64,000 bases of DNA from Promethearchaeota archaeon (lineage in GTDB: Archaea > Asgardarchaeota > Lokiarchaeia > Sigyniarchaeales > SOKP01): assembly GCA_030599585.1 (NCBI GenBank), contig JAUVNS010000002.1:32001-96000 (forward strand), written 5' to 3'. Position 1 is the stretch's first letter. Every line of letters starts with the position of its first letter. Under the pieces are notes generated by a model. It had not been told where the DNA came from. It saw nothing but the letters and a program-made list of their open reading frames with translations, and did not search any database. The position numbers and the translations under genes were made by a program. Below, one piece after another: positions 2 to 16,493 of the stretch.

Positions 2-616
2 TAGAATTATTACTAGAGGGATATTTGCAAAGATTAAGTTCCTTTTATACTCTCTTTTCCATTTTATGACATTTTTATAACCATTTATATTCTGTCTTAA
101 AATATCTATTATTTTATAATAATCCAAATTAAAATTAATTTTTAAGTCGATTGAAGTTTTAACTAAGTTAACACCTTTCTTTGTTAGTTGGCGTAAGAGA
201 ATTGTTCCAACGATCACCTCAGCTTTATCCTTCCCAAATTCATTTAAAAGATTCTTTTTTGTTTCAAACCATTTTCTTATTATTGGTTTCTCCCACCAAT
301 CGCAAAATTCTTCAACAAATTCGACAAAAGGTTGTTGGAGCTTTGCTTGATAAGTTTCGTCATTCCAATTATTAAAAAAGTGAATAAAAAGCAAATTTAT
401 AACTATATTCGAGAGACATCCGTTCTTTGGTCCAGAATCCCATATATCTAAGATTAAGTCGAATCTTTTTTGACCAATATCTTGTTTTAAATGAATTGGA
501 GAAGAAAAACTAGAGGATAAATCACCGTAATCATATTTTTCAAATAATTTAATTAATAATCTAATGTTTCTTCTATGCTTATCATTCCAATCTATTGGAA
601 CTTCTATGTGCTTCAT
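2..616 (-). CDS. Hypothetical protein, 5' part only (runs off window start); last visible gene of the ParB-SNF2-DUF3883 operon
   Basis: Manual translation from ATG at 616 (MKHIEVPIDWNDKHRRNIRLLIKLFEKYDYGDL...) is stop-free for 205 codons to the window edge; 35 bp downstream of the 943-aa gene on the same strand; not in the ORF track. Confidence 0.75.
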   Translation of the reverse strand, partial: MKHIEVPIDWNDKHRRNIRLLIKLFEKYDYGDLSSSFSSPIHLKQDIGQKRFDLILDIWDSGPKNGCLSNIVINLLFIHFFNNWNDETYQAKLQQPFVEFVEEFCDWWEKPIIRKWFETKKNLLNEFGKDKAEVIVGTILLRQLTKKGVNLVKTSIDLKINFNLDYYKIIDILRQNINGYKNVIKWKREYKRNLIFANIPLVIIL

Positions 617-651
617 AACTAAAACTATTTTTTAATAAAATGTTAAAATAT

Positions 652-3483
652 TTAATTGCTTTTAATTGTCAAAATTAATTTGGATATATTATTATTTGAT
701 TCTTCAAGTAATTTAAAAATCTCTTCTCTTTCAAAAGTGGATAACTCAGTTCTTTTAAATTTTGATCTTAACAAATTTATGCGATCTCGTATTAATTTTG
801 AATGTTCTAAGCAAGATCTTCTCTCTTCTGATATTTTGATTTTCTTAACTAATCCAGTAAATAATATTTGAATTCGCTTTTTATCCTCAATTTCTTGATT
901 TAGAATTTGATCAATTATACTACTTTTTACTGGATCATTAATTATAAATTTAAATTTTTTAATCATATTAGCTTTCAATATCTTTTTTTTAGAGACAAAT
1001 TTTTTGTCAATATTATTCCTTAACCAGAGAAAAGTCATGTTTTTGATTTTCTCTTTCATTAAAATTAATTCTCTACCTCCTTTCCCTGTGTAAACTCCTA
1101 ATTTCGATAATTCAGAGTTTAATACTTCAAAATGTTCGAATATATCAAATTTTTCAATAATATAAAAGTCATTCTCTAAGCCATTTTCTACTAAAAATTC
1201 TTCCATAAGATCATAAAGAAATCTGTATGTCGAAATTTGATTAAAATCAATGTTAAAGATTTCACAAATTTCTTCGTGTTTAATCTCATTATTCACCATA
1301 TTTATTAACAATTTTAGATCTTTTAAATCAAATGGTTTATTCAATTCATACTTCGATTGAATATTAATTTCTGATTTTAATCTACTTAATTCCTTAGTAG
1401 TTAAATCTTTTGGGAACTGAACGATTTTGATAAAATTCTTTGAGTTAAAGGCTGTATCTGTTAATATTGGGCTTAAAATATTAGATAATTTTATTGTTGC
1501 TAACCTTTTATTTCCATCTATAATATTACCATAATAAGAGACAAGTATTGGATCAGTCTGCCCTTTATTTTTATACATTTTAACATATTCATTCGATTTT
1601 TCATCAAAGTTTAAATAATTAAGAATTATTTTTTCAAAAATAGGATAATTTTCGATATTATCTTTAGAAATATGAATTCCAATCCTCCTTTCAAATTGAT
1701 TAATAATGTGTAAAAAATAGTCGCTATCAATATCTAATTTTAAGTATTTAGCTTCAATTTGTTGAATTGGGAAACTATAATGTTTAAAATTCCACAGATT
1801 GATTTTATCGATTGAATCTTCAACATCAGTTATTATTATCTCTAAGTTTTCCTCGCGGAATTGAAATTTTTTATAATTAATGAGAATTTCATATAATTCT
1901 TTCGAATTGACATGAAGTTCTCTAAAAGATTCTTGAACTTTTTCATTCTCCATAATATTTTTCAAGATACTTTTAGCTAAGGATATTTTTTCATTTTCAA
2001 TTAGGTATTTTGATTTTAATATTTGGGAAAATATCATGTGTTCAAGAGGTATATAATCAAATTTATTGTATAGCTGAAATAAATGTTTTAATATTTTTAA
2101 TGCGGATTTGTTATTTCCTTTTGAACTTTTTTCTCTGGCTACAAGATATAATTTGTATCTTTCAAGATTTTTAATTTCTTTGAATTTATGGCTTAATGAT
2201 CTTTTGTTTTGATAGTATAATGCTTTTTCAACCCTTTTTAAAGCATTTGTAAAATCTGATTGTTCAAAAAGCAATCTTGCTTGAACTTCTTCTCTATAAG
2301 CGTTAATAATAAAAAAAATATCTTCTACAAAATTACCTTTTAATAGAGAAGAGATCGATTGGTATTGGTTTCTTAGAAAATTATTACAAATATTAAGACA
2401 ATCTTGATATTCATTTTTATATAATGAATTTTTCACTTTGACATAAATATATTTTAATAATGAACGGTAATATCTTTTTATATACTTTTCCTCTTTGAAA
2501 GAAGTCAGATCTTTATATGATTTAACATAAGAAGCTAACGCGATTTCTTGATCTTCAAATCTTTTCTCTTTTTTATAAAAGTATGCTAGACCTTCATAAT
2601 AATATGCTTCTGATATCTTTTGTTCATATTTTTTGTTTCTTAATTTAAAAAAATATTGAGCAAAATCATAACAAATTAAAGACAATTCTTTATTATCATT
2701 GAAATAGCAAATCTGGCCAATTGTATAGAAATATTTGGAAAAACAGAATTGAATTATTTTATCATCATAGCCCATTGCAATTTTTATTGATCTCATATAA
2801 AGTTCAGATTTTTTTCTTAAACATTCATTATTTTTTTCTGTTAATTTCCTTGCTTCGTCTAGGTAATAATTTAATAGTTTGCGATCTCCTCTATTTTTAA
2901 ATCTATAAAATTTATTATCCTTATATTTTTCTGCTAATGTTGCGATAACTAATATTTCTTCAATATCTTCTGACAATAATGATTCTAAATCATCTTCAAA
3001 ATCCAAGAAATAACTCAATTTTTCAAAATGATAATGAGAAATTATTCCTTTCTTTTTCAAAAGTTTATTATAAATAGCTTTGAATACTTCATATTTAGAA
3101 CATGAGAACCCTAATTGCTCAAAATCAGCTAATACTATTTCTAATTCATTTTTTGTTCTAATAACAAAGCCACTTTTACCTAAACCGAGTATCATGTTTG
3201 CAAACATTCTTTTATAAGTAATTTTCAATGCTTCTTTATTTCCGGGGAACAGCTTAAAAAAAGTTTTAAGTGCATTAATAGAATCTATATATAACGCGCT
3301 ATGACAATTTTCTGCATTTGTTGTTATTTTTTCAAAAAGGCGCCAACCTAAAGCTTCTTTATCTAAATTACGTTCTCTGATAATTAAGCGAATCGCATTA
3401 TCATTAAATTCTTTATTAGTAATAATTAAATTATATATCTCTTCTATATACTTATCATTAAGGAGTTCTTCTTTTAGATTCAT
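652..3483 (-). CDS. Helical-repeat (TPR-like) protein with a C-terminal ParB/Srx-like domain
   Basis: N-terminal ~540 aa is Tyr/Lys-rich helical repeats (YYYEGLAYFYKKEKRFED, FTNALKRVEKALYY); C-terminal part has GQTDPILVSYYGNIIDGNKRL and aligns with the 419-aa protein. Confidence 0.7.
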   Translation of the reverse strand: MNLKEELLNDKYIEEIYNLIITNKEFNDNAIRLIIRERNLDKEALGWRLFEKITTNAENCHSALYIDSINALKTFFKLFPGNKEALKITYKRMFANMILGLGKSGFVIRTKNELEIVLADFEQLGFSCSKYEVFKAIYNKLLKKKGIISHYHFEKLSYFLDFEDDLESLLSEDIEEILVIATLAEKYKDNKFYRFKNRGDRKLLNYYLDEARKLTEKNNECLRKKSELYMRSIKIAMGYDDKIIQFCFSKYFYTIGQICYFNDNKELSLICYDFAQYFFKLRNKKYEQKISEAYYYEGLAYFYKKEKRFEDQEIALASYVKSYKDLTSFKEEKYIKRYYRSLLKYIYVKVKNSLYKNEYQDCLNICNNFLRNQYQSISSLLKGNFVEDIFFIINAYREEVQARLLFEQSDFTNALKRVEKALYYQNKRSLSHKFKEIKNLERYKLYLVAREKSSKGNNKSALKILKHLFQLYNKFDYIPLEHMIFSQILKSKYLIENEKISLAKSILKNIMENEKVQESFRELHVNSKELYEILINYKKFQFREENLEIIITDVEDSIDKINLWNFKHYSFPIQQIEAKYLKLDIDSDYFLHIINQFERRIGIHISKDNIENYPIFEKIILNYLNFDEKSNEYVKMYKNKGQTDPILVSYYGNIIDGNKRLATIKLSNILSPILTDTAFNSKNFIKIVQFPKDLTTKELSRLKSEINIQSKYELNKPFDLKDLKLLINMVNNEIKHEEICEIFNIDFNQISTYRFLYDLMEEFLVENGLENDFYIIEKFDIFEHFEVLNSELSKLGVYTGKGGRELILMKEKIKNMTFLWLRNNIDKKFVSKKKILKANMIKKFKFIINDPVKSSIIDQILNQEIEDKKRIQILFTGLVKKIKISEERRSCLEHSKLIRDRINLLRSKFKRTELSTFEREEIFKLLEESNNNISKLILTIKSN

Positions 3484-3570
3484 TTTTTTACACCGATTTT
3501 TTCGTTATTAATACAAATTGGAATTGGAAATCATTTAATTTAGAAATATGGTTTTAAAAATCATATATAA

Positions 3571-4647
3571 CTATTTTAAACCATCATTTTCATAATTATC
3601 ATTTTCTCTTTCAATATCTGAAAATTTCATAGTTTCGTGCCTAAAACTGTCAAATGGAACTTCTACTTCATATAATGTAGGTTTCAAGGGTATTATTCCA
3701 TTTTCAACTAAATAGTGAACATTATTGAATTTCTTAAGAGTATTATTTTTTAAATTGACAAAATATATCCAATAATCTTCATTAAATTTAATAGAAGTTG
3801 AGTACTCATTTCGCGAGAGAAAAAAGCGTGAGTTTAGGCTATTAGTTGTTTTGACTTCTATATATTTACTACTCCCATCTTTATTAACAGATAAAATATC
3901 ATAACCCTTGTCAACATAATCTCTTGCGATTAGTCTAACACGGTTTATTAAATTTGGATCAGGAAATTTATTTACCTCTTGTTTTTCTAATCTAAAAGCT
4001 ATATTCTCTCCTAAAGTCCCGATAATTTTTTGTTTTTTTAAGATTTTTTCTAAATCATCCTCAGTAAATTTTTTTCCCATTAAAATTTTCTTCCAATAGT
4101 CCTCATAATCCAAAATTTCAGGGTGAAATTCAACCAGGTTTTCTGAAATTTGAAGATTAGCCTCCCAATAGTGATTTAGATTTGTAGATAATTCGAAGAA
4201 ATCATCCTCCATAGAATCAGACAATAAATTCAATGTTTTTAACATCGAAATAAGAACAGCGCAATATTTTGAACTGTGTAATTTATAAATTAAAAATCTG
4301 TCTTCTTTTTTTATTGCATATTTTTGTAAATCTTCAAATATCCAATTATTTAGCATAAACTCTTCAATTAGTTTCATCTGTAAATCTGTTATTTTTATTA
4401 AAGAATCTTGATCTGAATGACTTAAATAGTGTTCTCCAAATTCAGTTAAATGAATGATATTATTCTCATTAGAATAAAAAAAATTTAAGGTTTTTCCTAA
4501 TTTTAAACCTAAATCTGAATCACACGTACTAAGCAAGGGATTTTCCTTAATATATCGATCAAATTCATTATAGGGCATTCCTACCCCGATTGCCCTATAC
4601 TCCAATACTTTTTTTAAGATTAAATTAAATTGCCATAAAAAAGTCAT
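3571..4647 (-). CDS. DUF3883 (NO VEIN C-terminal) PD-(D/E)xK nuclease-domain protein
   Basis: GTLGENIAFRLE...GYDILS...KYIEVKTT...FFLSRNEY matches the DUF3883 signature; N-terminus is wHTH-like (IHLTEFGEHYL). Confidence 0.85.
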   Translation of the reverse strand: MTFLWQFNLILKKVLEYRAIGVGMPYNEFDRYIKENPLLSTCDSDLGLKLGKTLNFFYSNENNIIHLTEFGEHYLSHSDQDSLIKITDLQMKLIEEFMLNNWIFEDLQKYAIKKEDRFLIYKLHSSKYCAVLISMLKTLNLLSDSMEDDFFELSTNLNHYWEANLQISENLVEFHPEILDYEDYWKKILMGKKFTEDDLEKILKKQKIIGTLGENIAFRLEKQEVNKFPDPNLINRVRLIARDYVDKGYDILSVNKDGSSKYIEVKTTNSLNSRFFLSRNEYSTSIKFNEDYWIYFVNLKNNTLKKFNNVHYLVENGIIPLKPTLYEVEVPFDSFRHETMKFSDIERENDNYENDGLK

Positions 4648-4666
4648 TTAAATTACCCGAAATTAA

Positions 4667-6616
4667 TTAAATATCATCATAAAAAATTTCAAACTCTTCA
4701 GCATCAGGTTCGTTTGAAAAACCAATAAAAGATTCTGTATCATTTAGAATATGAAGCATATCTATTTCTTTTTCAATTAAGCGATTATGGATTTTATGAT
4801 CGATCGTTCCTTGAGGTAGATCGTCAGAAACTGATACTAAATAATAATATGTGATCTGATCATCATCTTCTAAACCAATTCTGTGAATTCTATCTTTTGA
4901 TTGAATAAATTGGCCACAATTATAAGACCTATCAACATAAATTGCATCGTGGCATACTTTATGGAGGGAAATTGATTCTGCGCAAGCTTGCGGATTAGCA
5001 ATTAATATAGAAAACTCATGAGGATCTTTTTTAAACCGGGAAATATAGTCTTCTCGGGATTCTTCGGTATAAATACCATTTCTTAAATCTTTTGCTTTAG
5101 ATTTAGGAGTATCTCCAATGATTAGAAAAACATGATCCTCCCCAAATTCCTCCTTGAAGAACTCATATAAGGTCTCAAGATTAATTATAAACTCGGACCA
5201 AATTAGGATTTTCTTTATATTTTTTTCATTTTTTAATTTTCTTACTAATTCAACTGTTTTTAACAATTTTGGGGAACATTCATAATTTGAATATATCTCC
5301 AAATTATTAATTACTTCCAGAATTTGATTGTCTGCTTCAATATTCTGAGATTGCCCAGCAATTTCATCTTTTAAAGATTCTAAACCATATTCTGTAGATT
5401 TTTCCATTAGTAAATTTAAATTTGAAGAAATTTGTCTTAATCTAACAATTAAACAATTTTTGTAACTATTTATTATCTCAAAATGAACTAAATTTTCAGC
5501 ATATTCGATAATATCCTTCCATCTTTCACTTACTAACTTATACAATGCTAATTGAGATGGAGAAAGGGGCACTTGAATCACCAATTCCTTTGGTTTTGGT
5601 AGATTCATTTGCGTTTTAGAGATTCGAGTAAAAAAAGGGTAAATTTTTTCTTTTATATCTTCTATAACTGAAGGGTTGGAGTTTCTAGTAAGATATTTAA
5701 AATGATTTTTATCACCTAATAATGCTCCAGGATATAAAAATGAGAATTGTGCAAAAAGATCATGAATATTATTTGGGACGGGTGATCCTGTTAAAATAAT
5801 TTTTGCTGAGCTATAAGGAGATAATCTGAGGATCGCAGAGGATCTTTTACCATCAATATTTTTGATATTATGAGATTCATCCAATACCAACACAAAACTA
5901 TATTTACTGAGTAGATCAATCAGATATCTTATATCTCTACGAGCAGTTTCATATGTTGTTAAAAATATATCAGTATCCGAAATAAGTGTCTCATCATTAT
6001 AATATTCTATCCTATCCTTTTTTCTACCATGAATTCTAATTAAGTTTGGAAGAGGCTCTTTAAAACATTCCTTGATTTCTTCTTCCCATGGCATCAATGA
6101 ACTATAAGGTCCAATTACAAGCAATTTATCAACAATCCCCTCATTTTTCAAAAAATCAAATCCTGCTAATACTATTGTTGTCTTTCCACTTCCAGGAACA
6201 CTAAAGTTTGCCACGCATTTTAATTCTATAAAATGATATACCGGCATCCTTTGATAATCAATTAATATTCTTTTAAAAGAAGGAGGGTTTTCTGAAAAGA
6301 TATTATCATGTTCTTTTATAGATTTGCCAACTTCAACTAAATCTATAATATCAACACGAGTTTTCAAATTAGTTAGAAAATTTTCTAAAACTTGTGTCTT
6401 TTTAATTTTATAATCTTTTTGTTGTTTTAAATACTCAAAAGAAAGAAGGGCTAGTTCATGATTTAATTCAAAATTTTCGAAAGTATATTGAGTGTCTTTT
6501 GGATTAGAGACTTTGTACCCATAATTATTCAATTTTACTCTAGTTTTAGCATTTGGTTTTTCTTCAAATCTTAAGATAAGGTTTCTTCTTTCATAATCCG
6601 CTATAATATTGTTCAT
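4667..6616 (-). CDS. SNF2-family (SF2) helicase/ATPase
   Basis: PGSGKT, LTTYE, VLDESHNIKN, LTGSPVPN, RLRQISSN, SPKL, QSKDRIHRIG. Confidence 0.93.
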   Translation of the reverse strand: MNNIIADYERRNLILRFEEKPNAKTRVKLNNYGYKVSNPKDTQYTFENFELNHELALLSFEYLKQQKDYKIKKTQVLENFLTNLKTRVDIIDLVEVGKSIKEHDNIFSENPPSFKRILIDYQRMPVYHFIELKCVANFSVPGSGKTTIVLAGFDFLKNEGIVDKLLVIGPYSSLMPWEEEIKECFKEPLPNLIRIHGRKKDRIEYYNDETLISDTDIFLTTYETARRDIRYLIDLLSKYSFVLVLDESHNIKNIDGKRSSAILRLSPYSSAKIILTGSPVPNNIHDLFAQFSFLYPGALLGDKNHFKYLTRNSNPSVIEDIKEKIYPFFTRISKTQMNLPKPKELVIQVPLSPSQLALYKLVSERWKDIIEYAENLVHFEIINSYKNCLIVRLRQISSNLNLLMEKSTEYGLESLKDEIAGQSQNIEADNQILEVINNLEIYSNYECSPKLLKTVELVRKLKNEKNIKKILIWSEFIINLETLYEFFKEEFGEDHVFLIIGDTPKSKAKDLRNGIYTEESREDYISRFKKDPHEFSILIANPQACAESISLHKVCHDAIYVDRSYNCGQFIQSKDRIHRIGLEDDDQITYYYLVSVSDDLPQGTIDHKIHNRLIEKEIDMLHILNDTESFIGFSNEPDAEEFEIFYDDI

Positions 6617-6623
6617 TGTTTAA

Positions 6624-7883
6624 TTAGTCCTCATCATCCTCTTTTAATAAGAAAATAATATCATTTATCTTCTCTTGATTTTGCTCCATTATTCCCAACA
6701 ACCTTTCTTCATCGATTTCAGTTTCTCCTTCATCTATAACATTTTGGATTCCATCTAATTTATCAGAAATCTGTTCAGCAAGAGTATAGATTTTTTCTTC
6801 CTTCTCACCTTCACGTATAGAATTAATTGCTGCTGTCATCAATTTATGGACTTCTCTCTTTCCTGAGACATTTTCATCCAGAGAGAGCACTTTTTCCACA
6901 GTATTTCTTAAGTCATTTCTATGTACAACTGAATTCAATTTTCTGATAACTTCTCTACTTTTCATTACCTTTTTTTCGGCAATCATTTCTGGATCTATGT
7001 TATTTTTTAACCATTTAAAAGCTAATTCTTGCATTAAGTCTAGTTCACGATCTAATTCAACTCCCTGTAAACCTGTATATCGAGCATGGCCTCTATTTAA
7101 CTTTCGCAGCTCTCTAAAATGATCAAAAAGATTTCTTTTATCGATTATTGTATACTTCTTCTCTATATCATTATCTTCCAAATAAAGTTCAATTAAATTC
7201 AAGACTTCTTCAAATTCTTCAACATCAGCATCAAATAGGTTGAACATTTTTGCTATCTCAGTTTTACTATAATTAAATGATTTTAATTTTCTTACAGCAA
7301 GAGCCTGATTTATTAAGGTATAATTTACTCTTTCATCTATAAATAATTGATTAAAAGTCTGAATTGCAAGCAACTGGCTTTTGGATAATCCTGAATCTAA
7401 CCTTACTACATCCATATGTTTATATTTATCATAGTTTCCTTCAGTTTTTACTTTTTCTTCCTGATACAATTGCCTTATAACCATATATCTTCTATTGCCG
7501 TCCAGTATTATCCCACCGTTAGTGATAATACCTGGGACTTCTTGTTGAGTATTAGAAATACTTTTCTTCAATTTTGATGTTTTTGTTTTATCAGATCCAC
7601 GCTGAAGTGTATCTTCAAATATTCCTGCATAAATCTCGCGATCTGACAAATTTTCAAAGTCCAATTCACTTCCTAATTTATTTAGTTCTTCTATTAACTG
7701 ACCCTCAATTCTCATATTATCAAAATTATATGTTAAAAATTCAATTGGAACTTTAACTACTTTTAAATCTTTCATAGTACCATCGAACCATCTTATCCGA
7801 TGTGTTCTTTCTGTAATTGCTATAACTCCATTAATTTCAATAAAATTATTTATTCTTAACGAATTCTCCTCTTCAAAAACCAT
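6624..7883 (-). CDS. ParB/Srx-like N-terminal domain protein with HTH and helical C-terminus
   Basis: VPIEFLTYNFDNMRI...QQEVPGIITNGGIILDGNRRY (ParB/Srx GxxR motif); YSKTEIAKMF is HTH-like. Confidence 0.8.
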   Translation of the reverse strand: MVFEEENSLRINNFIEINGVIAITERTHRIRWFDGTMKDLKVVKVPIEFLTYNFDNMRIEGQLIEELNKLGSELDFENLSDREIYAGIFEDTLQRGSDKTKTSKLKKSISNTQQEVPGIITNGGIILDGNRRYMVIRQLYQEEKVKTEGNYDKYKHMDVVRLDSGLSKSQLLAIQTFNQLFIDERVNYTLINQALAVRKLKSFNYSKTEIAKMFNLFDADVEEFEEVLNLIELYLEDNDIEKKYTIIDKRNLFDHFRELRKLNRGHARYTGLQGVELDRELDLMQELAFKWLKNNIDPEMIAEKKVMKSREVIRKLNSVVHRNDLRNTVEKVLSLDENVSGKREVHKLMTAAINSIREGEKEEKIYTLAEQISDKLDGIQNVIDEGETEIDEERLLGIMEQNQEKINDIIFLLKEDDED

Positions 7884-8076: not shown

Positions 8077-8102
8077 TGTAAAAAAAAATCCTGCTTTTTA
8101 CA
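8077..8102 (-). terminator. Putative terminator of the 39-aa gene (T9 tract on the minus strand within a TGTAAAAA...TTTTTACA inverted repeat)
   Basis: tgtaaaaaaaaatcctgctttttaca lies ~20 nt downstream of the microprotein stop codon. Confidence 0.45.
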
Positions 8103-8119: not shown

Positions 8120-8239
8120 TCATTTTTTTTTTAAAGCAGCCCTTTGAGCTCTCGATTTAAAACCCTGGTTTTTTCCGCTCTTATCTGCATGAGATTGTAT
8201 CCTACGAGCTGCTTTTGAACTCATCTTACTTTTTCCCAT
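8120..8239 (-). CDS. 39-aa basic microprotein MGKSKMSSKAARRIQSHADKSGKNQGFKSRAQRAALKKK (SMP/LEA-like 'A.RIQS...F..RAQ.AA' type)
   Basis: Manual translation; perfect SD GGAGGTGA (8245-8252) 5 nt upstream of the ATG; richer in GC than its flanks; below the ORF-track size cutoff. Confidence 0.85.
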   Translation of the reverse strand: MGKSKMSSKAARRIQSHADKSGKNQGFKSRAQRAALKKK

Positions 8240-8259
8240 ACTTTTCACCTCCTTTTGGA

Positions 8260-8381
8260 TTACTGTTTTTTCTCATATTAAAATTAAAATCATTATTATA
8301 TTTAAATATTATTGTTTTTTTCTAATAATATTGAGAAAAAGTAATATTTATTAATACGGACTGATAATATTAATTAAAAGA
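8260..8381. promoter_or_regulatory. Divergent promoter region with TATA-like boxes and imperfect inverted repeats (candidate CARF-HTH operator)
   Basis: Palindromic TATTTAAATA at 8299-8308; TTTATTAATA ~26 nt upstream of ATG 8382; TTTTCTCATATTA (8268-8280) is nearly inverted to TAATATTGAGAAAA (8326-8339). Confidence 0.45.
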
Positions 8382-9065
8382 ATGAGATTAAGTGATCCTA
8401 TGAAAATCCAAATCGCTTCATTTGCGTTAGTGCCTGACCATATTTTTATAGCTGAAAGATATTTTCATACTGAGAAAATAATTCTGATCTTAAGCGAAGA
8501 GAATAAGGAAAAACAAGCCAATAACAATGAGGAAATTAGCTCTAAAATTAATGAGGTGATTGGATTCTATGAAAAATTAAATGTTCCCGTAGAAAAAATA
8601 TATGTGAATTATAAGAACTTTATGGAAATGACTTTGAAATTAGCCAGATTACTTAAAATGTTTTCTCCTGATGACCAAATTTTGTTGAATCTTAGCGGTG
8701 GTCGTAGGTCAATCCCGATTTCTTTAATATATGCGGGAACCTTTATTAGTAATTTCAAGGATATTAATATTAAATGTGTAGTTATACCTGAAGACAAGAC
8801 TTATACTCCATTTAACTTGTTACCAAATTATTTACCGGACGAAATCGATATCAATCTAATGTCAAGGTTACCACAGAATTTAACCCTAACTGATTTAGAA
8901 AAGGATTTAGGAATAAAGCAACCTACAATATCAATTAGGTTAAAAAGGCTTGAAAAGTATGGATTCATAACCATGAAGGGAAGAAAAAGAGAATTAACGG
9001 ACTTAGGACTATTAATGGTCGACATTACTAATCTGGAATTCAATAAAGAGGATGAGGTAAACTAG
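8382..9065 (+). CDS. CARF + winged-HTH transcriptional regulator (Csa3-like)
   Basis: CARF motif ILLNLSGGRRSIPISL; C-terminal HTH LTDLEKDLGIKQPTISIRLKRLEKYGFI...RELTDLG; alternative start at 8400. Confidence 0.88.
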   Translation: MRLSDPMKIQIASFALVPDHIFIAERYFHTEKIILILSEENKEKQANNNEEISSKINEVIGFYEKLNVPVEKIYVNYKNFMEMTLKLARLLKMFSPDDQILLNLSGGRRSIPISLIYAGTFISNFKDINIKCVVIPEDKTYTPFNLLPNYLPDEIDINLMSRLPQNLTLTDLEKDLGIKQPTISIRLKRLEKYGFITMKGRKRELTDLGLLMVDITNLEFNKEDEVN

Positions 9066-9066
9066 T

Positions 9067-9909
9067 ATGATAACCTGGATAACAACTGTAGGATGGAGTC
9101 CATTTGCGGTTATAAACCCGATATGGGCGTATTGTAAGGAAAATGAGAAAACTCCAGACAAGTTATTTCTTATACACACCGAAAATATGAAGGTATTAAA
9201 AAACGTAGAAACTTGTAAAAAATATCTCAATGAGATTTTACGAGAATATTCCAATAATAATTTTAAAGAAGAAAATTTAATCAGCTACCAGATTGAAAAT
9301 GAGACCTACGAAATATATTCCCTCGCAATGAAAAAAATAATAGACCGGGAGCTTAAGGATGATAAAGCAAAGATAATCTTAGATATGACTCCAGGTAGAA
9401 AATATATGTCAGCAATTAATATGTTTTTCGGTCTAAAAGCATTAAATAATTCAATTCAGGTTCTTTATCTCTATTTAGAAGAAGCTAAATACCAAAAAGT
9501 TCCATATCCATTAACACCAATAATTAAAAATGAACTAGTAGACATCATTGAATCAGCTGAAATATTTTCTAAAGATATTATTATTGATGAGGTGATAGAT
9601 CCAGATGATGAAATTATCAAAAACATTTCTGACATAGATCTTTTGAGAAAGTTTCTGGTTTTAAGGGCTATAGTAAAAGATTTCAATACAATCACGAAGA
9701 TAAAAAAATATTTTTTAGCTAAGAAACAAAGCATTAGAAGCATAGAACTTAGACAAATTCTTAAAGAGTTGCTGGAAGGTAAATATGTAAGTATTACTAA
9801 AGTCCCAAACAAAAAACAAAATTACTTTTTATACAAAAATCTTGAAAAAGCAGATAAATACATAGAAGAAACATTAAATCAGCTTAATATCGGGGAGGAT
9901 GGTGGCTGA
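9067..9909 (+). CDS. CARF domain protein with a C-terminal wHTH-like domain
   Basis: CARF motif I ITTVGWSPFAVIN, TPDKLFLIHT, motif II ILDMTPGRKYMS, VLYL; C-terminal LRQILKELLEGKYVS...YFLY. Confidence 0.82.
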   Translation: MITWITTVGWSPFAVINPIWAYCKENEKTPDKLFLIHTENMKVLKNVETCKKYLNEILREYSNNNFKEENLISYQIENETYEIYSLAMKKIIDRELKDDKAKIILDMTPGRKYMSAINMFFGLKALNNSIQVLYLYLEEAKYQKVPYPLTPIIKNELVDIIESAEIFSKDIIIDEVIDPDDEIIKNISDIDLLRKFLVLRAIVKDFNTITKIKKYFLAKKQSIRSIELRQILKELLEGKYVSITKVPNKKQNYFLYKNLEKADKYIEETLNQLNIGEDGG

Positions 9910-9915
9910 TTAAAT

Positions 9916-11031
9916 TTGATTGATATAAAAACTATTTTAGAAAAATATATTCTATTAGACTCAAACGAATTTGTTATGTTCTTCAATGAACTTTTTTTAG
10001 ACGCTAAACACCACTTAACAATAAAAGATGCGCTCTATGGTTTAGATTTATTTGATATCAAAATTTCGGACCAGATTGAAGTAGAGATACTAATTGATTT
10101 AGATCTGATCAACCAAAACAGAAAAAATATGCCAATTAATACTCAAAATGAGTTTCCAAACAAATCTCGATTTTTTGAGATATTCCTCAAGTCAGGTCTA
10201 TTTTTTAATAAATATTACAGAGGTTCTATTGATCATATTCTACGAGATATGGATCAAGTCAATCCCCTTAATGGAGATCTTCCCATAGCGATATCTTTTG
10301 ATACGAATCTATATTTCAATCATTTTTTTAGTCAGATGTATCCAATGTTACTTGAACGATATGGAGCCCCAAGGTTTCCAATCAAATTTCTCATGTCGGA
10401 AGGCGTTAAAAAAGAACTTACTCGCTATGAAAAGAAGTATAAGCAACATGATATAGATGATTTGAAAAATGTTGTGAAATATCCCTCAATTATACAAGAT
10501 TTCTTTAACCAATCCACATTAACTTCCCGCTTATGGCATTTAGGGCATAGTGACTTTTTAAAATGTATTGATAATGTTAATTATAAACTTGTTGATGAGG
10601 ATACTTCAGTTAACCATAACGATATGGACAATAAAATAATTAATGGGTTATTGAAGGAAATAAAGCAACAAAATATTAAATTGTTTATTTTAAGTCAAGA
10701 TTCTGATTTCATTGCAAGATCAAGAGGAAATAAGAATTTAGTTGCCAAATTTTTGGATAAAATTCCATACTCAAAACTTAAACAACTATACTCAATTAGC
10801 TGGGAGAAATTCGTAAGATTCATTTACACGCTTTCAGTGACTTTTGGAGCAATTATTTTAGAGTTTAAGGAAAAACCAATTATCGTTATACAAGGAATTT
10901 GGCGCGGAAAGAAATTGTTTCATTGGGAAAATGAAACCATGAAGGTTTGTTCTGCCAATAATTTACTTAGTAAGATTGAAAGAGATTTAACCATCTTGAG
11001 AAATATTAAATTAGAGGAGGGGGTAAATTAA
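9916..11031 (+). CDS. PIN-domain ribonuclease
   Basis: PIN acidic motifs ISFDTNLYF, GVKKEL, DMDNKII, FILSQDSDF. Confidence 0.8.
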   Translation: MIDIKTILEKYILLDSNEFVMFFNELFLDAKHHLTIKDALYGLDLFDIKISDQIEVEILIDLDLINQNRKNMPINTQNEFPNKSRFFEIFLKSGLFFNKYYRGSIDHILRDMDQVNPLNGDLPIAISFDTNLYFNHFFSQMYPMLLERYGAPRFPIKFLMSEGVKKELTRYEKKYKQHDIDDLKNVVKYPSIIQDFFNQSTLTSRLWHLGHSDFLKCIDNVNYKLVDEDTSVNHNDMDNKIINGLLKEIKQQNIKLFILSQDSDFIARSRGNKNLVAKFLDKIPYSKLKQLYSISWEKFVRFIYTLSVTFGAIILEFKEKPIIVIQGIWRGKKLFHWENETMKVCSANNLLSKIERDLTILRNIKLEEGVN

Positions 11032-11056
11032 TCATGGTAATCTGGAGGTTGATTGC

Positions 11057-13813
11057 GTGAGTAATCTTTACTATGCTAATTTAGATATTCCTAGATATGA
11101 AATTGAAAAAGCTAATGCTTACTACAGGCTCAAAGATTTTATAAATTATTTAAGATTAGCAAAAGAAAATCAAGAGCGTCAAAAACATGCAATTTTTTGG
11201 AAATTCTTGAAACCAGAATCTATAGAGGAAATTATTAAAAAAAGATTTATTTTAAAAACTTCTAGAGAGGAACCTTACGATGAATGGACTTTGAATGAAT
11301 TAGGTGAATACATTGAGAATGATTATGATCTGAATACTAAATTACAATCTGAAATTCAAAAGGAATTTAACCAGATATCAGATGAGGAAAAAATATGGAT
11401 CAAGATTTCTGATAAGAATAGGACAGAGGAAGGATATAAACTAATCCAGAAATTTTTTCAAAATAATTTAATTTATGATTCTCCTGATCTTTTAAAGGAA
11501 AATAGTGTTAGAGTTTTAAGTAAGGATAGAAATTACAATGCATTAATCATTAATCGTAAACCTAAGAGCGAAAAAATTTATGTAAAATATCGAGCTATCC
11601 CCTTAATTCGTCAATTAGATGCACTCCTTAATTTACAGAAAAGACCACTTAAGGCTCATCTGCCTTTATTAAAATTGGTTATGAATAAGTACTTCGCAAG
11701 GTGGGCACCTGTTGATGTAAATACAGCAAACATAATTCAATGGCATCTTCTTAAAGATGATAATCGTAATGGAATAGAGAAACAGAGAGAATTTGTAAAA
11801 ATAGCTCTTAGTACTCCTGATTTTGCAATCTTAGAAGGACCCCCTGGGTCCGGAAAAACCTATACAATCTGTGAGTTAATACTGCAATTAGTAAATCTAA
11901 ATAAGAGAGTTTTGTTATGTGCATCAACGCATGTCGCTGTGGATAATGTCCTTGAGAAAGTTAAAGATAAAAAAGCAGTAATAGCTATAAGAATTGGAAG
12001 AGATAATATATCTGAAAAGGTTAGAGAATGTCAAATAGATGAAATTGAAAAGTATGAGAGTAAAAGGATAAGGAAGAATCTACTGATAAGGAAAAAAAAA
12101 GGAGCCATCACAGATAGTCAAAATTACTTATTAGAATGTTTACAATCAAATAAATCTAATATAATACGAGACACATTTCTTGATGCAGCAAATCTAATTT
12201 GTGGTACGAACATTGGAATTCTTAATCATCCAAAAATAAAACTTAATTTAAAAAATACTGTAGCAAATATCGATTACGACTATTTAATACTAGACGAGGC
12301 TAGTAAGACTACATTTCAAGAGTTCCTAGTCCCAGGGATGCTCGCTAAAAAATGGATCATTGTTGGTGATTTTAAGCAATTATCTCCTTATGTAGACGCT
12401 GAGGATTTGGAAGGTAATTTAATAGGTTTATTGAACCCTAAGGAAGAGATAGTATGTACTGATATTTTCGAAAGCTTCCTTAATTCTTCCAAATCTAAGA
12501 AAAATGTTAATTATTGGATGAACAGTTTAATAATAGAAAACGATGATAAAATAAGAAAATTGTATGAAAAACAAGCTAAAGCACTAGGTTTAGATTACAT
12601 TAGAATTGAAGATGAAAAATATAATAAATTTGAATTGTTAGGCTCTCAAATAATAATTACATCTGAATCATTAGTAAAAACAATAGAACATGATTTACCT
12701 GTTAATATACATCATATACGCGGAGATTTTCAATTAACTAATTTTAAAAGAAGAAGAGAGTTTTGGAAGAAGCATTGCAATCCAAAAATTTATGAAGATG
12801 ATAATGAGAATAATATACTAGAAAAAGAAAAATGGCCTCATCAAGTTGCATGGAGATTAATAAGAGCTAATGAGACGAGAATTACTAAAGAGAATCATGA
12901 ATACTATTTGAATCAATTGAAAGGACTGTATCCTAATTTTCAATTGTTAAATTCATCCAAAGATGAAGATATTGAAATTGAAAAAGATGTTGAAATTGAC
13001 ATTAATGAAAAACTTAAAGAAAAAATTGATTTAATTAGCACTATAGGATTACCATCAATTATTGAATCTCTCCAAAATGGAATAAAATCAAGTGTAAAAA
13101 GTAAATATCCATACATCCTTTCTGAAGGTTTTGATAAAGAAGTTCTTAACACAAGGCATGTATTACTTAACTACCAATATAGAATGCATCCAGAGATCTC
13201 AGAATTCCCCAGAAAATATGTGTACAATAATGATGCTCTCAAAGATTATCCAGGAACGAATAGAGAATGGAATTTTCCAAGATATGAAAATAAACGCATT
13301 GTATGGGTAAATACGTTGGGAAGTAAAGACTCTGAACTGAACATGAACCGTTCAGAAGTAGAGAATATTATTTTTGAACTAAAAGAATTTATGAAATGGT
13401 CGGAAAGAGGGGGAAGATATAAAACATGGGAAGTAGCAATTTTAACTTTCTATCGTGCTCAAGAAAGGCTGATTAGACGAGAATTACAAAAATTTTTCGC
13501 AACAAAAAGTAGAAGGTTTTTCAATTCAACGAAAATGAATGTTGCGGTTGAGTTATGTGTCGTTGATCGGTTCCAAGGACATGAAGCTGATGTTATTTTC
13601 TTATCTTTTGTTCAAACCCAAAAAGAAGGTTTTTTAAATAGTGTGAATAGATTAAATGTTGCCTTGACCAGAGCTAAATATCAATTAGTCATTTTTGGTT
13701 CTCATAAGTTTTTTATAAAAACAAAATCAGAAATTTTAAGAAATCTTGCTGAATTTTGTATGAAGAATATAATTATACCTTTTAGAGGAGGGAAAAAAAT
13801 TGGATACAATTAA
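11057..13813 (+). CDS. Upf1/DNA2/NAM7-like SF1B helicase (AAA_11/AAA_12)
   Basis: EGPPGSGKT, ASTHVAVDN, ILDEAS, VGDFKQL, QYRMHPEI, VDRFQGHEAD, RLNVALTRAK; SD GGAGGT upstream of the GTG start. Confidence 0.95.
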   Translation: MSNLYYANLDIPRYEIEKANAYYRLKDFINYLRLAKENQERQKHAIFWKFLKPESIEEIIKKRFILKTSREEPYDEWTLNELGEYIENDYDLNTKLQSEIQKEFNQISDEEKIWIKISDKNRTEEGYKLIQKFFQNNLIYDSPDLLKENSVRVLSKDRNYNALIINRKPKSEKIYVKYRAIPLIRQLDALLNLQKRPLKAHLPLLKLVMNKYFARWAPVDVNTANIIQWHLLKDDNRNGIEKQREFVKIALSTPDFAILEGPPGSGKTYTICELILQLVNLNKRVLLCASTHVAVDNVLEKVKDKKAVIAIRIGRDNISEKVRECQIDEIEKYESKRIRKNLLIRKKKGAITDSQNYLLECLQSNKSNIIRDTFLDAANLICGTNIGILNHPKIKLNLKNTVANIDYDYLILDEASKTTFQEFLVPGMLAKKWIIVGDFKQLSPYVDAEDLEGNLIGLLNPKEEIVCTDIFESFLNSSKSKKNVNYWMNSLIIENDDKIRKLYEKQAKALGLDYIRIEDEKYNKFELLGSQIIITSESLVKTIEHDLPVNIHHIRGDFQLTNFKRRREFWKKHCNPKIYEDDNENNILEKEKWPHQVAWRLIRANETRITKENHEYYLNQLKGLYPNFQLLNSSKDEDIEIEKDVEIDINEKLKEKIDLISTIGLPSIIESLQNGIKSSVKSKYPYILSEGFDKEVLNTRHVLLNYQYRMHPEISEFPRKYVYNNDALKDYPGTNREWNFPRYENKRIVWVNTLGSKDSELNMNRSEVENIIFELKEFMKWSERGGRYKTWEVAILTFYRAQERLIRRELQKFFATKSRRFFNSTKMNVAVELCVVDRFQGHEADVIFLSFVQTQKEGFLNSVNRLNVALTRAKYQLVIFGSHKFFIKTKSEILRNLAEFCMKNIIIPFRGGKKIGYN

Positions 13814-14900
13814 ACTTAAAAGAAAAGTGGAAATTCAAAGATTTAGAGCTATAATTGATTTAGGAAGGCAAAGAGAAAAAGAAGTCTATATAGCAATATT
13901 AAAACTGGCACAAGAAAATGAGGGGATAATTACACCAGAATTAATAATTGAGAGTTTCTTCGAGGGAAGACCCATAGATTTTGCAATTAGAATTATTCAA
14001 AATTGTAAAATAGATGGTTTATTTGATGATTATGGACATATTTCTGAAGAGGGGAAGGTTGCATTAAGTGAAAATAAGATATTTCTAGGAGAGAATGGAG
14101 CTTATGAATTTTGGACTACTTTAGATCCACTAATTCCCCAATTAATCCTTGACATTAAACTAATTGATGTACGCCAAATGAATAAAAAAGCAAATCGTGG
14201 TTCAGTAGAAGTAATTCCAGATTGGATTAAAAATCTGGAAAATCAAAAAATTAACCTCCTTAACAAGAATAAAGATGTTATAAAAATTTATGAGTTTCTC
14301 CCTCAAATTGAAGTATTAAAAAACTATTTAAATGTTACTGTTCACTTTCATATTACTCCATTAGAAGTATCTGAAGAATCCAAGCTAATGGTTGCTGGAG
14401 ATTTAAGGAAAAATCTAACTCAAATTCCAAAATATTCATTTGAAGAAATTTGGTTTTCTCTATTAGGAATTGAGAAAAATAAATGGGATCCAAATAAATC
14501 TGCATTGCTCTACAATTTTGAAGATGTTAAGGACAATAATTCAAGGATGAGTTTTTCTATCGATAAACAATTTCAAAGACCTGATATTTTAGATTTAGGT
14601 AAGTTTGAGGATGTATCTGTCAGGAATATTCCAATAATACCCGTCAACGAGAAAGAAGCAAATATATGGGCAAATTGGATATTAGAACAAGAGATTAATA
14701 ATTATACATATGAGGAATCATATATAGAAATATGCTACGGTATTGCTTCCAAACCTCAGTTTTCAGATTTTCAGATCGCCTTTCCATCACAAATAGAGCT
14801 TGCTGAAAAATTCATTAGGAGAGAAGATAACGGAGAAATAAAATTTTTAGAGAAATTTTGGTATTTACAAACACCAATAGATTTAAGAATTAAAAATTAG
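13800..14900 (+). CDS. Hypothetical helicase-associated protein, N-terminal wHTH-like
   Basis: Overlaps the helicase stop; AILKLAQE...IIQNCKIDGLFDDYGHISEEG resembles a wHTH; no catalytic motif recognised. Confidence 0.7.
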   Translation: MDTIKLKRKVEIQRFRAIIDLGRQREKEVYIAILKLAQENEGIITPELIIESFFEGRPIDFAIRIIQNCKIDGLFDDYGHISEEGKVALSENKIFLGENGAYEFWTTLDPLIPQLILDIKLIDVRQMNKKANRGSVEVIPDWIKNLENQKINLLNKNKDVIKIYEFLPQIEVLKNYLNVTVHFHITPLEVSEESKLMVAGDLRKNLTQIPKYSFEEIWFSLLGIEKNKWDPNKSALLYNFEDVKDNNSRMSFSIDKQFQRPDILDLGKFEDVSVRNIPIIPVNEKEANIWANWILEQEINNYTYEESYIEICYGIASKPQFSDFQIAFPSQIELAEKFIRREDNGEIKFLEKFWYLQTPIDLRIKN

Positions 14901-14912
14901 AGGGTTTTTAAA

Positions 14913-16493
14913 ATGTTTGAAATAATTCAGAAGCAGAAGGAAATTGATTTAAGAAGAGAAGAAATTCCTCATTGTTGGATTTATAAAGAATCTAATCAAG
15001 ATTTAGCATTAAATAATTATTTTAAGAATACACAATTATCAGATGACATTTGGTTGAGTGGTCAAGATCGGAAATTGCTTATTCAATTAATAAATTCAAT
15101 CAAAAAGGCAAGGAATATCATATGTTTATCAACATTTATTTTTAGTAGTAAAGAAATCAAGGATGAACTTATAGAAGCAAGTAAAAGAGGTGTGAGAGTT
15201 TATATGATTACTGCATCAAATAAACATTTAAAATCCTTACCTGAAGATGATGATAATTTCAACAAGCATATGTACGTGGAAATGAGCGAATTATTTAATG
15301 AGTTACAAGGAATAGTAAAAATAAGAACATCAGAAAACTTTCATACAAAATTCTTATTAATTGATCCAGGAAGAGATGAGATTTCTGAAGGTTATCTACT
15401 TACATCTAATTTTGATACAAAGGGATTGATCGGTAGGGATATTAAAGGGATTTATCATGTTAATCAAGAAATAGGTATTTTTTTAAATAAAAGAGAGGTT
15501 GAGGATCTTTTTAAGCAATTCTGCTTAGGTTTTTGGGAGTTAAGCAAAGAAGAATCCAAAGTTGATGGTTTTTATCCTTTAAATAGCAATATTCAACAGA
15601 ATTTTACCTTTAATAATCTTCTACTCAATTCTCCTAATCATAAGTCTTTAAAGAATGAAATAATTAATATTATTTCAAGTACCAGAGGTAAAATATTTAT
15701 CAGTACTTATGGTATTACGGACGATAATGAGATCTATAATTTAATTTTAAATGAACTTGTTGAGAAAAAAAGAGAAGTGTTCATTTTAACTCGACCCCGA
15801 GTAACTAAAATGGAAAGTTTAATTAAGTTATCACAAAATGGAGCAAAAATTTACGGACACTACGATATTCACGCTAAACTCGTAATTGTTGAAAATATAA
15901 ATAATCCACAAGGCATAGTTATGACAGCTAATATTGATAATATTAGTTTTGAAAATAGTTTTGAAACAGGAAAAATCTTAGATCCAGTTCAAGCAAGAAC
16001 ACTTTTAAATGTAATTTATACTTGGATTAATTATTTCCCATTGGAATTAATGTGTAATATTGAGAGAGGAAAATTGGATAGATATGCTCTAGTTTGGAAT
16101 AGATTAACAAAAACATTGGATCGTAAAAAAGTAATATTTGAAAAGATTGAAGAATTAAAACCAGAGTATGCAAGTTCTATCTTACATTACAGAAATTATG
16201 AAATTTCAAATAAAAAATTAGATTTTGTTGAAAGTAATTCTGAAATCGTTCAAAAAATGGTCTTTAAATACAAAGTAAAACCCCCAATCAAACCAGTTAA
16301 TGCAAAAACATATTTGGAAGAAGCGGACAAAGAAAAATCAAAATCAAAGAAAAATAAGAAAAATTTTCAATTCTTTCTTCTAAACAATCAAAGTTATATT
16401 GTAGTTAAAAATGACGATGAGTTAAAAGAAGCAATAAAAATCACAGAAAAATCAAATGTAAAAATAGTAACTCTCGAGAAATATCTCTTTTAG
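14913..16493 (+). CDS. Phospholipase D-family nuclease with two HKD-type motifs
   Basis: FHTKFLLID...LLTSNF and IHAKLVIVE...VMTANI; also LIEASKRGVRVYMI. Confidence 0.9.
   Translation: MFEIIQKQKEIDLRREEIPHCWIYKESNQDLALNNYFKNTQLSDDIWLSGQDRKLLIQLINSIKKARNIICLSTFIFSSKEIKDELIEASKRGVRVYMITASNKHLKSLPEDDDNFNKHMYVEMSELFNELQGIVKIRTSENFHTKFLLIDPGRDEISEGYLLTSNFDTKGLIGRDIKGIYHVNQEIGIFLNKREVEDLFKQFCLGFWELSKEESKVDGFYPLNSNIQQNFTFNNLLLNSPNHKSLKNEIINIISSTRGKIFISTYGITDDNEIYNLILNELVEKKREVFILTRPRVTKMESLIKLSQNGAKIYGHYDIHAKLVIVENINNPQGIVMTANIDNISFENSFETGKILDPVQARTLLNVIYTWINYFPLELMCNIERGKLDRYALVWNRLTKTLDRKKVIFEKIEELKPEYASSILHYRNYEISNKKLDFVESNSEIVQKMVFKYKVKPPIKPVNAKTYLEEADKEKSKSKKNKKNFQFFLLNNQSYIVVKNDDELKEAIKITEKSNVKIVTLEKYLF

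Follow-up and report, generated by a model that had tools for sequence, protein, structure and literature searches.

The 64,000-nucleotide stretch of Promethearchaeota DNA analyzed here (hereafter, the window) carries a 39-codon gene whose small, basic product is probably, as judged from its sequence and gene context, an optional accessory of archaeal antiviral loci. Taking all of the evidence together, we explain the product with moderate confidence as a basic hairpin microprotein that is a facultative accessory of RNA-centered antiviral loci under wHTH sensor-regulators. Based on the gene neighborhoods that we compared, its linkage to defense genes is real, but broader and looser than first proposed in an earlier note on this DNA, which cast the peptide as the output of a CARF regulator or as the seventh component of a single six-gene system.

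The microprotein coding sequence occupies 8120-8239 (-), with the stop codon at 8120-8122 and the ATG at 8239, and the 39-aa peptide quoted in the earlier note is its exact translation. We placed the start at this ATG because homologs begin at MGK; a GTG at 8248, which would give 42 aa, was dismissed for the same reason. The ORF is single-copy in the genome (4.85 Mb, 52 contigs), and G+C in the window is 24-38%. The encoded protein has a mass of 4.3 kDa, a pI of 12.0, a net charge of about +12, and a GRAVY of -1.39, with 3 Gly among its 39 residues (7.7%) and no Cys. The Shine-Dalgarno site reported earlier is indeed perfect: GGAGGTGA lies at 8245-8252 (-), 5 nt before the ATG, and is kept as GGGGGTGA in the syntenic locus L042. 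Judged from this strong Shine-Dalgarno site, expression of the microprotein is probably high.

Oligo-T alone is the usual terminator signal of archaea, and a run of nine T at 8080-8088 (-), 32-40 nt past the microprotein stop, is likely such a terminator. The run had originally been described together with an inverted repeat; the T9 is there, while a scan for bacterial-style hairpin terminators found no stem-loop downstream of the gene, so the claimed repeat is unsupported as a stem-loop. The T9 run likely sets the microprotein gene apart, as a monocistronic unit, from a second apparent defense operon (window 2-7883, (-)), which begins 236 bp downstream and has genes for an SNF2 helicase and for a weakly ParB-like protein of 419 aa. 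The sequencing runs that contain the stretch are of sediment and cold-seep DNA only, with no RNA run among them.

The ORF is a genuine gene under strong purifying selection. A word-indexed search yielded 89 homologs at E<=1 (67-95% identity, mostly 35-43 aa), and of 1.84 billion cluster representatives searched exhaustively with HMMER, 80 matched the microprotein. Against Asgard homologs, the window ORF has pN of 0.05-0.18 vs pS of 0.57-1.0 (saturated), and dN/dS is about 0.05-0.10 where calculable, indicating purifying selection. A chance ORF is ruled out by these two sets of homologs and by the saturated synonymous sites with low pN. Seven positions are invariant in a 27-sequence alignment (I14, D19, G22, N24, F27, K28, and R30), and the family core motif reads AxRIQSHADKxGxNQxFKxRAQ. 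We define the unnamed RIQSHADK microprotein family (archaea, Myxococcota, and fungi) by the pattern M-x3-A-x-R-I-Q-S-H-A-D-K-[ST]-G-x-N-Q-x-F-K-x-R-A-Q in a protein of about 40 aa or in a C-terminal module, and the window peptide belongs to it.

AlphaFold2, run on a 77-sequence alignment, predicts with confidence a two-helix fold (mean pLDDT 88.6), a helical hairpin composed of helix 8-21, a G-K-N turn, and helix 25-37. A Foldseek comparison of the hairpin model with the PDB returned no match, and a profile search of PDB sequences returned chance antibody matches only. Pfam, NCBIfam, and PADLOC hold no family for the microprotein or its long forms.

A one-genome-per-species scan recovered 66 loci, spread over Asgard lineages, Thermoplasmatota including MGII (Poseidoniales), methanogens, Bathyarchaeia, Nitrososphaeria, and Myxococcota. 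Fungal proteins also match, which bears out the earlier statement that the family spans archaea, bacteria, and fungi. Occurrence is patchy, with a copy in 3 of the 24 genomes of the window's genus, and a pattern scan of the viral contigs in IMG/VR turned up none. The long forms, as well as the myxobacterial and fungal forms, carry RG/RGG-rich extensions; homologs from fungi and spore-forming Myxococcota have Gly-rich tails; and one relative, P0102, has two modules in tandem. Truncated or degenerate genes occur at L006:1486-1569 (G020) and at L174:6337-6411 (G253), the latter between a radical SAM gene and a helicase. These truncated copies suggest an accessory gene that is still being lost.

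The earlier note had also assigned the peptide to the SMP/LEA-like proteins. The resemblance to SMP (D-34 LEA, PF04927) is recognizable: the microprotein is likewise hydrophilic and rich in Ala, Gln, and Ser, and shares a motif of the form AA.xIQSxAD...G....AQSAA; UniRef gives one relative the name "SMP domain-containing protein," PF04927 is found on 18-19% of the members of neighboring ESM-Atlas clusters, and P0102 has two modules in tandem. PF04927 (gathering score 22 bits), however, matched neither the window peptide nor 27 relatives at E<=10, nor did a six-frame search of the whole genome give a match at that threshold. SMP proteins carry several SMP units within a larger protein, whereas the microprotein is a single 39-aa unit, with two modules only in rare relatives such as P0102; its net charge of about +12 and its antiviral genomic context in archaea also set it apart. 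Membership in the Pfam SMP family was thus rejected on the missing match and the single unit, and we treat the similarity in sequence as a lead only. In composition, the microprotein is a hydrophilin (Gly >6%, strongly hydrophilic), but, unlike typical hydrophilins, it is predicted to be folded.

The microprotein gene is divergent from a Csa3-like CARF-wHTH regulator gene at 8382-9065 (+). An archaeal TATA box for the microprotein promoter, TTTAAATA, lies at 8299-8306 (-), within a block (8292-8314) that is conserved with two orthologous operons, and would place the transcript start near 8278, with a 5' UTR of about 39 nt. This box falls inside an inverted repeat at 8292-8345 (arms 8292-8313 and 8324-8345) that extends over both divergent core promoters. 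The core of the repeat is AATATTATT (8305-8313), 10 nt, and AATAATATT (8324-8332), and its left arm overlaps the TATA box and presumed BRE of the microprotein promoter. The repeat is kept at the aligned position in L156 and L159, and when the control regions are aligned for the window, G302, and G016, only two blocks prove conserved, which jointly make up the repeat. The CARF-wHTH gene has no Shine-Dalgarno site; with a TATA-like box about 31-39 nt upstream, its leader is likely short.

Based on its sequence, the inverted repeat is a candidate operator for a CARF-wHTH dimer serving the two divergent promoters; an equally good reading is a symmetric pair of AT-rich core promoters (TATA/BRE elements). 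The conserved palindromic divergent promoter makes control of the microprotein gene by the CARF-wHTH protein plausible, and we put the chance that the gene is co-regulated with its locus at about even. Searches of the genome, 100% complete by marker genes, turned up no Cas10 homolog above the cut-off and no SMODS cyclase. In the passages of Bell et al. 2024 (PMC11090510) that bear on related helicase-nuclease systems, RtcR-like sensing of RNA fragments is proposed for the CARF proteins.

Five co-oriented genes follow the regulator and span 9067-16493 (+). Directly downstream of CARF-wHTH is a CARF_m1 protein (9067-9909, (+)), followed by the PIN half of CARF_PIN (9916-11031, (+)), a UPF1-like SF1 helicase that matches MkoA (11057-13813, (+); 2e-81), a conserved 366-aa adaptor with no family match (13800-14900, (+)), and a two-HKD PLD nuclease (14913-16493, (+)) that matches DrmC-type models and not MkoB. 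Domain scans of the six operon genes detected no CnuB/CnuC (McrBC-like) genes.

Neighbors were tallied at 61 archaeal species loci, with the window left out, by calling ORFs, comparing them with the window proteins, clustering them, and annotating the cluster representatives. We give counts and not P values because the loci come from related lineages. Immediately upstream of the microprotein gene is a CARF-wHTH regulator at 10/61 loci (66-355 bp away, mostly divergent; divergent in at least 9), while a wHTH regulator of other architecture takes the same position at five more. Viperin is a neighbor at eight of the loci, mostly 40-115 bp upstream on the same strand, a spacing found in at least 7 species genomes; a UPF1-like (MkoA/CnuH-like) helicase and/or PLD nuclease is present at 10/61, and a recurrent unannotated family, c4, at 6/61. 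At least one of these five neighbor types occurs at 31/61 loci, and about half of the archaeal loci have none. The 10 CARF-wHTH and 10 helicase/PLD loci confirm the predicted linkage of homologs to CARF, helicase, and PLD genes. The linkage is archaeal: bacterial members had been suggested to lie near such genes as well, but regulator, viperin, helicase, PLD, or c4 neighbors were found at 0/10 bacterial loci. Neither an absence of homologs, nor of purifying selection, nor of CARF/helicase/PLD linkage, any of which the earlier note said would speak against its proposal, was observed.

All of the viperin neighbors submitted to NCBIfam pass the equivalog model NF038283 (222-297 bits vs a cut-off of 180). 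Chance adjacency of viperin and microprotein is negligible because viperin is present in only 10 of 201 sampled Asgard genomes. The microprotein, in turn, is found at only 2/12 Asgard viperin loci, and the window's own genome has no viperin. The helicase neighbors match PADLOC MkoA (2e-81 to 3.5e-99), and the MGII and thaumarchaeal nucleases match MkoB (2e-29 to 7e-35). The window layout, with the microprotein divergent from the CARF-wHTH gene that heads a six-gene operon, is found again at L042/L156, with variants in G038 and Heimdallarchaeum aukensis. Other immune-type contexts include McrBC with PLD, an SLFN-like helicase with PglZ, STAND NTPases with TPR repeats, and NYN RNases. The c4 proteins (346-559 aa; L022:6125-7804, L030:6808-7848, L050, L061, L069, and L071) are encoded divergently upstream of the microprotein or of viperin-microprotein pairs, mainly in methanogens and Thermoplasmatota, with one in a Nitrosopumilaceae genome. 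They have no Pfam, NCBIfam, or PADLOC match, and the ESM Atlas gives weak wHTH leads below 0.9; c4 may be another regulator class.

In several lineages, the peptide is coupled to its neighbors within an operon or within one protein. In MGII archaea, the gene for the long-form peptide follows those for the helicase and MkoB, and the stop codon of one gene overlaps the start of the next (L036, L043, and L045); in L004 (G016, same genus), the peptide gene has a SPASM radical SAM gene on one side and the helicase gene on the other. Three metagenomic proteins consist of a complete viperin (234-260 bits) running in frame into the peptide module; one of these fusions is on 6 contigs (4 retrieved, from 4 different samples) and another on 3. 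The fusion linkers still encode a Shine-Dalgarno site, which suggests stop-codon loss in tightly packed operons, and the fused genes show that tethering of the peptide to viperin can be tolerated. Further in-frame fusions join the peptide to a wHTH regulator (P0181), a Zc3h12a-type NYN RNase, and a zinc-ribbon protein. A predicted complex of the L012 viperin with its adjacent peptide scored 0.00 in a run without controls and points neither way.

At L037:6587-7999, L055:3-1397, and L130:5583-7004, the peptide gene is coupled in translation to the gene of a protein of about 470 aa with a wHTH and a zinc ribbon; this coupling occurs in Methanosarcinales and Methanofastidiosa, and the two are fused once (P0181). 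On plasmid pMETHO01 of Methanomethylovorans hollandica, the peptide gene overlaps (ATGA) the upstream gene of a 473-aa wHTH protein and is followed, on the same strand, by a viperin gene annotated in RefSeq. Cultured methanogens that carry the peptide include M. hollandica DSM 15978, Methanoculleus chikugoensis, and Methanolobus sp. ZRKC3.

The 366-aa adaptor is kept between helicase and PLD in 22 further Asgard genomes of 400 sampled and is a useful marker of this helicase-adaptor-PLD operon type. We anchored a reverse survey on it and cut out 20 loci from those 22 genomes, with flanks of about 9 kb as far as the contig reached. Helicase and adaptor are together in 20/20 loci and PLD is in 19/20, often headed by a CARF-wHTH gene and/or viperin. 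With the window counted, the peptide is present in 5/21 such operons, in every case at the head; the five include one degenerate remnant. Since 16/21 operons have no peptide and one copy is degenerate, the microprotein, as judged from gene content, is an optional accessory of the operon and no fixed seventh subunit. An obligatory seventh subunit is ruled out by the same 16 operons. Nor is the peptide restricted to the six-gene system of the window: it is promiscuous, and wHTH sensor-regulators and viperin are its most frequent partners. The 30 best MkoA-model Asgard loci had no peptide within 1.5 kb, a figure that reflects short flanks and an unspecific model; the MkoA model also matches housekeeping helicases (7/14 control genomes), and the adaptor-anchored survey was used instead.

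The helicase-adaptor-PLD operons at L158, L161, L168, L170, L172, L173, L174, and L175 begin with a radical SAM gene. It is confirmed as viperin in L168, L173, and L175, and CARF-wHTH is often beside it. By gene order, viperin plus a Mokosh/CoCoNuT-like module thus appears as a recurrent composite in Asgard genomes.

The sister six-gene operon in G016 has an unrelated 44-aa, NPNN-rich microprotein in the same slot (L159:3856-3990, (-)). Its ORF is divergent from the orthologous CARF-wHTH gene, has a Shine-Dalgarno site, and lies behind the same conserved palindromic promoter. The NPNN family, with the motif DDRSxSMNPNNPAY..DNRSxQLNPN and other loci at L176-L205, occurs in 45/400 Asgard genomes and has no match in Pfam, NCBIfam, or PADLOC. 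An NPNN-type motif also forms the N-terminal extension of the MGII long-form peptides. Because an unrelated microprotein fills the slot in G016, the slot rather than the RIQSHADK peptide may be what matters.

The surrounding genes resemble known systems in part. Mokosh type I, in the available text of Millman et al. (bioRxiv 10.1101/2022.05.11.491447), consists of two genes, the MkoA helicase and the MkoB PLD, with no small third. The window helicase matches MkoA (2e-81) and the MGII/thaumarchaeal peptide loci match both MkoA (3.5e-99) and MkoB (2e-29 to 7e-35), but the window PLD matches DrmC-type models only, and the MkoA serine-threonine kinase region is left uncovered. CoCoNuT III-C, in the passages of Bell et al. 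2024 (PMC11090510) describing it, pairs CnuH-CnuE with McrBC-like partners and comprises a UPF1-like helicase and a wHTH-PLDx2 effector, with a predicted RNA target and often under CARF-type regulators. By this description, the window operon is alike in its UPF1-like helicase with PLD and unlike in having no CnuB/CnuC, and those passages mention no such small protein. For prokaryotic viperin (pVip), the partner named in the accessible literature is a nucleotide kinase; the viperin-peptide adjacency and the three fusions resemble this viperin-kinase linkage, yet the known partner is a kinase and the window genome is without viperin. Within the accessible text of the Mokosh, CoCoNuT, and viperin papers and of two archaeal-defense surveys (open-access and bioRxiv search), such a peptide goes unmentioned, and its association with viperin, helicase-PLD, and regulator genes is undescribed in the portion of that literature searched.

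Our preferred explanation, the facultative accessory, would work as follows. In archaea, the microprotein would accompany viperin, UPF1-like helicase and PLD (Mokosh/CoCoNuT-III-C-like), NYN RNases, and STAND NTPases, and its gene would typically adjoin the wHTH sensor-regulator of its locus. In the window, its own TATA box, strong Shine-Dalgarno site, and T9 terminator would make it a monocistronic unit divergent from CARF-wHTH, which would control it along with the six-gene operon. The product would bind a polyanion, RNA or the ribosome being likelier than DNA, and would support or protect a growth-arrested state during the immune response instead of serving as a stoichiometric subunit of any one effector. 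We propose binding to RNA, ribosomes, or another polyanion only tentatively, because of the charge of about +12, because the long, myxobacterial, and fungal forms carry RG/RGG-rich extensions, and because the partners all act on RNA or nucleotide supply. A universal target, rather than the effectors, is suggested because the peptide is near-invariant while its partners vary. A role in dormancy or protection would also fit the homologs of spore-forming organisms.

These fungal and myxobacterial homologs argue for a function independent of immune genes, and the microprotein might be an LEA/SMP-like hydrophilin of general use in stress or dormancy, without a specific role in immunity. Its gene, often together with a regulator, would then form a small mobile cassette that enters variable, defense-gene-collecting islands. 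The patchy occurrence within the genus (3/24 genomes), the hydrophilic composition (GRAVY -1.39), the Gly-rich tails in fungi and spore-forming Myxococcota, the lack of recurrent neighbors at half of the archaeal and all bacterial loci, and the mixed company of McrBC, PglZ, SLFN-like helicase, and STAND genes are all as expected of such a cassette. It would not predict coupling and in-frame fusions specific to viperin, MkoB, NYN, and regulators in separate phyla, the recurring head position in helicase-adaptor-PLD operons, or a viperin that is in only 10/201 Asgard genomes yet adjoins 8 peptide loci, and we consider it rather unlikely. Slimmer still, in our estimate, is the chance that the peptide works with the wHTH regulator, for instance as a co-repressor, an anti-repressor, or an autoregulatory peptide, and tunes the sensor instead of acting downstream. 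A regulator is indeed the commonest immediate neighbor (15 loci), is co-transcribed or overlaps at ATGA in the wHTH-X loci (L037, L055, and L130), and is fused in frame in P0181; the peptide is, however, 70-90% identical throughout while facing at least three unrelated regulator architectures, and the MGII and thaumarchaeal operons hold it without an adjacent regulator.

The earlier suggestion of an antitoxin or trigger role found no support. An inhibitor or antitoxin-like guard that keeps viperin, helicase-PLD, or NYN inactive until infection might well be small, probably highly expressed, and placed beside potentially toxic effectors, as the microprotein is, but one nearly invariant peptide is implausible as a guard for such unrelated effectors, most operons of the same type manage without it, and a covalent viperin fusion is hard to square with a releasable inhibitor, all of which makes this reading very unlikely. 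To a ribosomally made precursor or substrate of the adjacent radical SAM enzyme we give almost no credence. Radical SAM genes do adjoin many loci, with SPASM types in L004, L010, and L089, but most of the encoded enzymes score as viperins under the equivalog model, and the substrates of viperins are nucleotides; the peptide lacks Cys, shows no division into leader and core, is conserved over its whole length with a predicted hairpin fold, and in most copies, the window included, has no radical SAM neighbor. Assignment as a RiPP precursor was rejected on the missing Cys, the whole-length conservation, the predicted hairpin, and the viperin identity of the radical SAM neighbors.

A broader and doubtful reading is that this nearly invariant two-helix microprotein is an ancient, shared dormancy or protection factor, used in archaea with RNA-directed antiviral modules that eukaryotic innate immunity has as well (viperin and UPF1-like helicases), and in spore or seed dormancy in fungi, myxobacteria, and possibly plants (SMP). 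If true, this would link antiviral RNA-stress signaling and dormancy via one conserved effector, with the NPNN family as an interchangeable second microprotein in the same slot. Few immune genes are common to archaea, especially Asgard, and eukaryotes; viperin and the UPF1-like helicase-nuclease modules belong to these few, and the archaeal loci have so far been annotated as one- or two-gene systems. The 40-aa gene is often overlooked by gene callers, and its recurrence beside these modules, or in fusion with them, suggests an overlooked accessory layer in the immune loci of Asgard archaea, Thermoplasmatota, methanogens, and Thermoproteota. Omission of the microprotein may affect heterologous tests of enzymes that are cloned alone, and since the peptide is tiny, predicted to be folded, and found in cultured methanogens, any contribution that it makes to archaeal immunity is directly testable.
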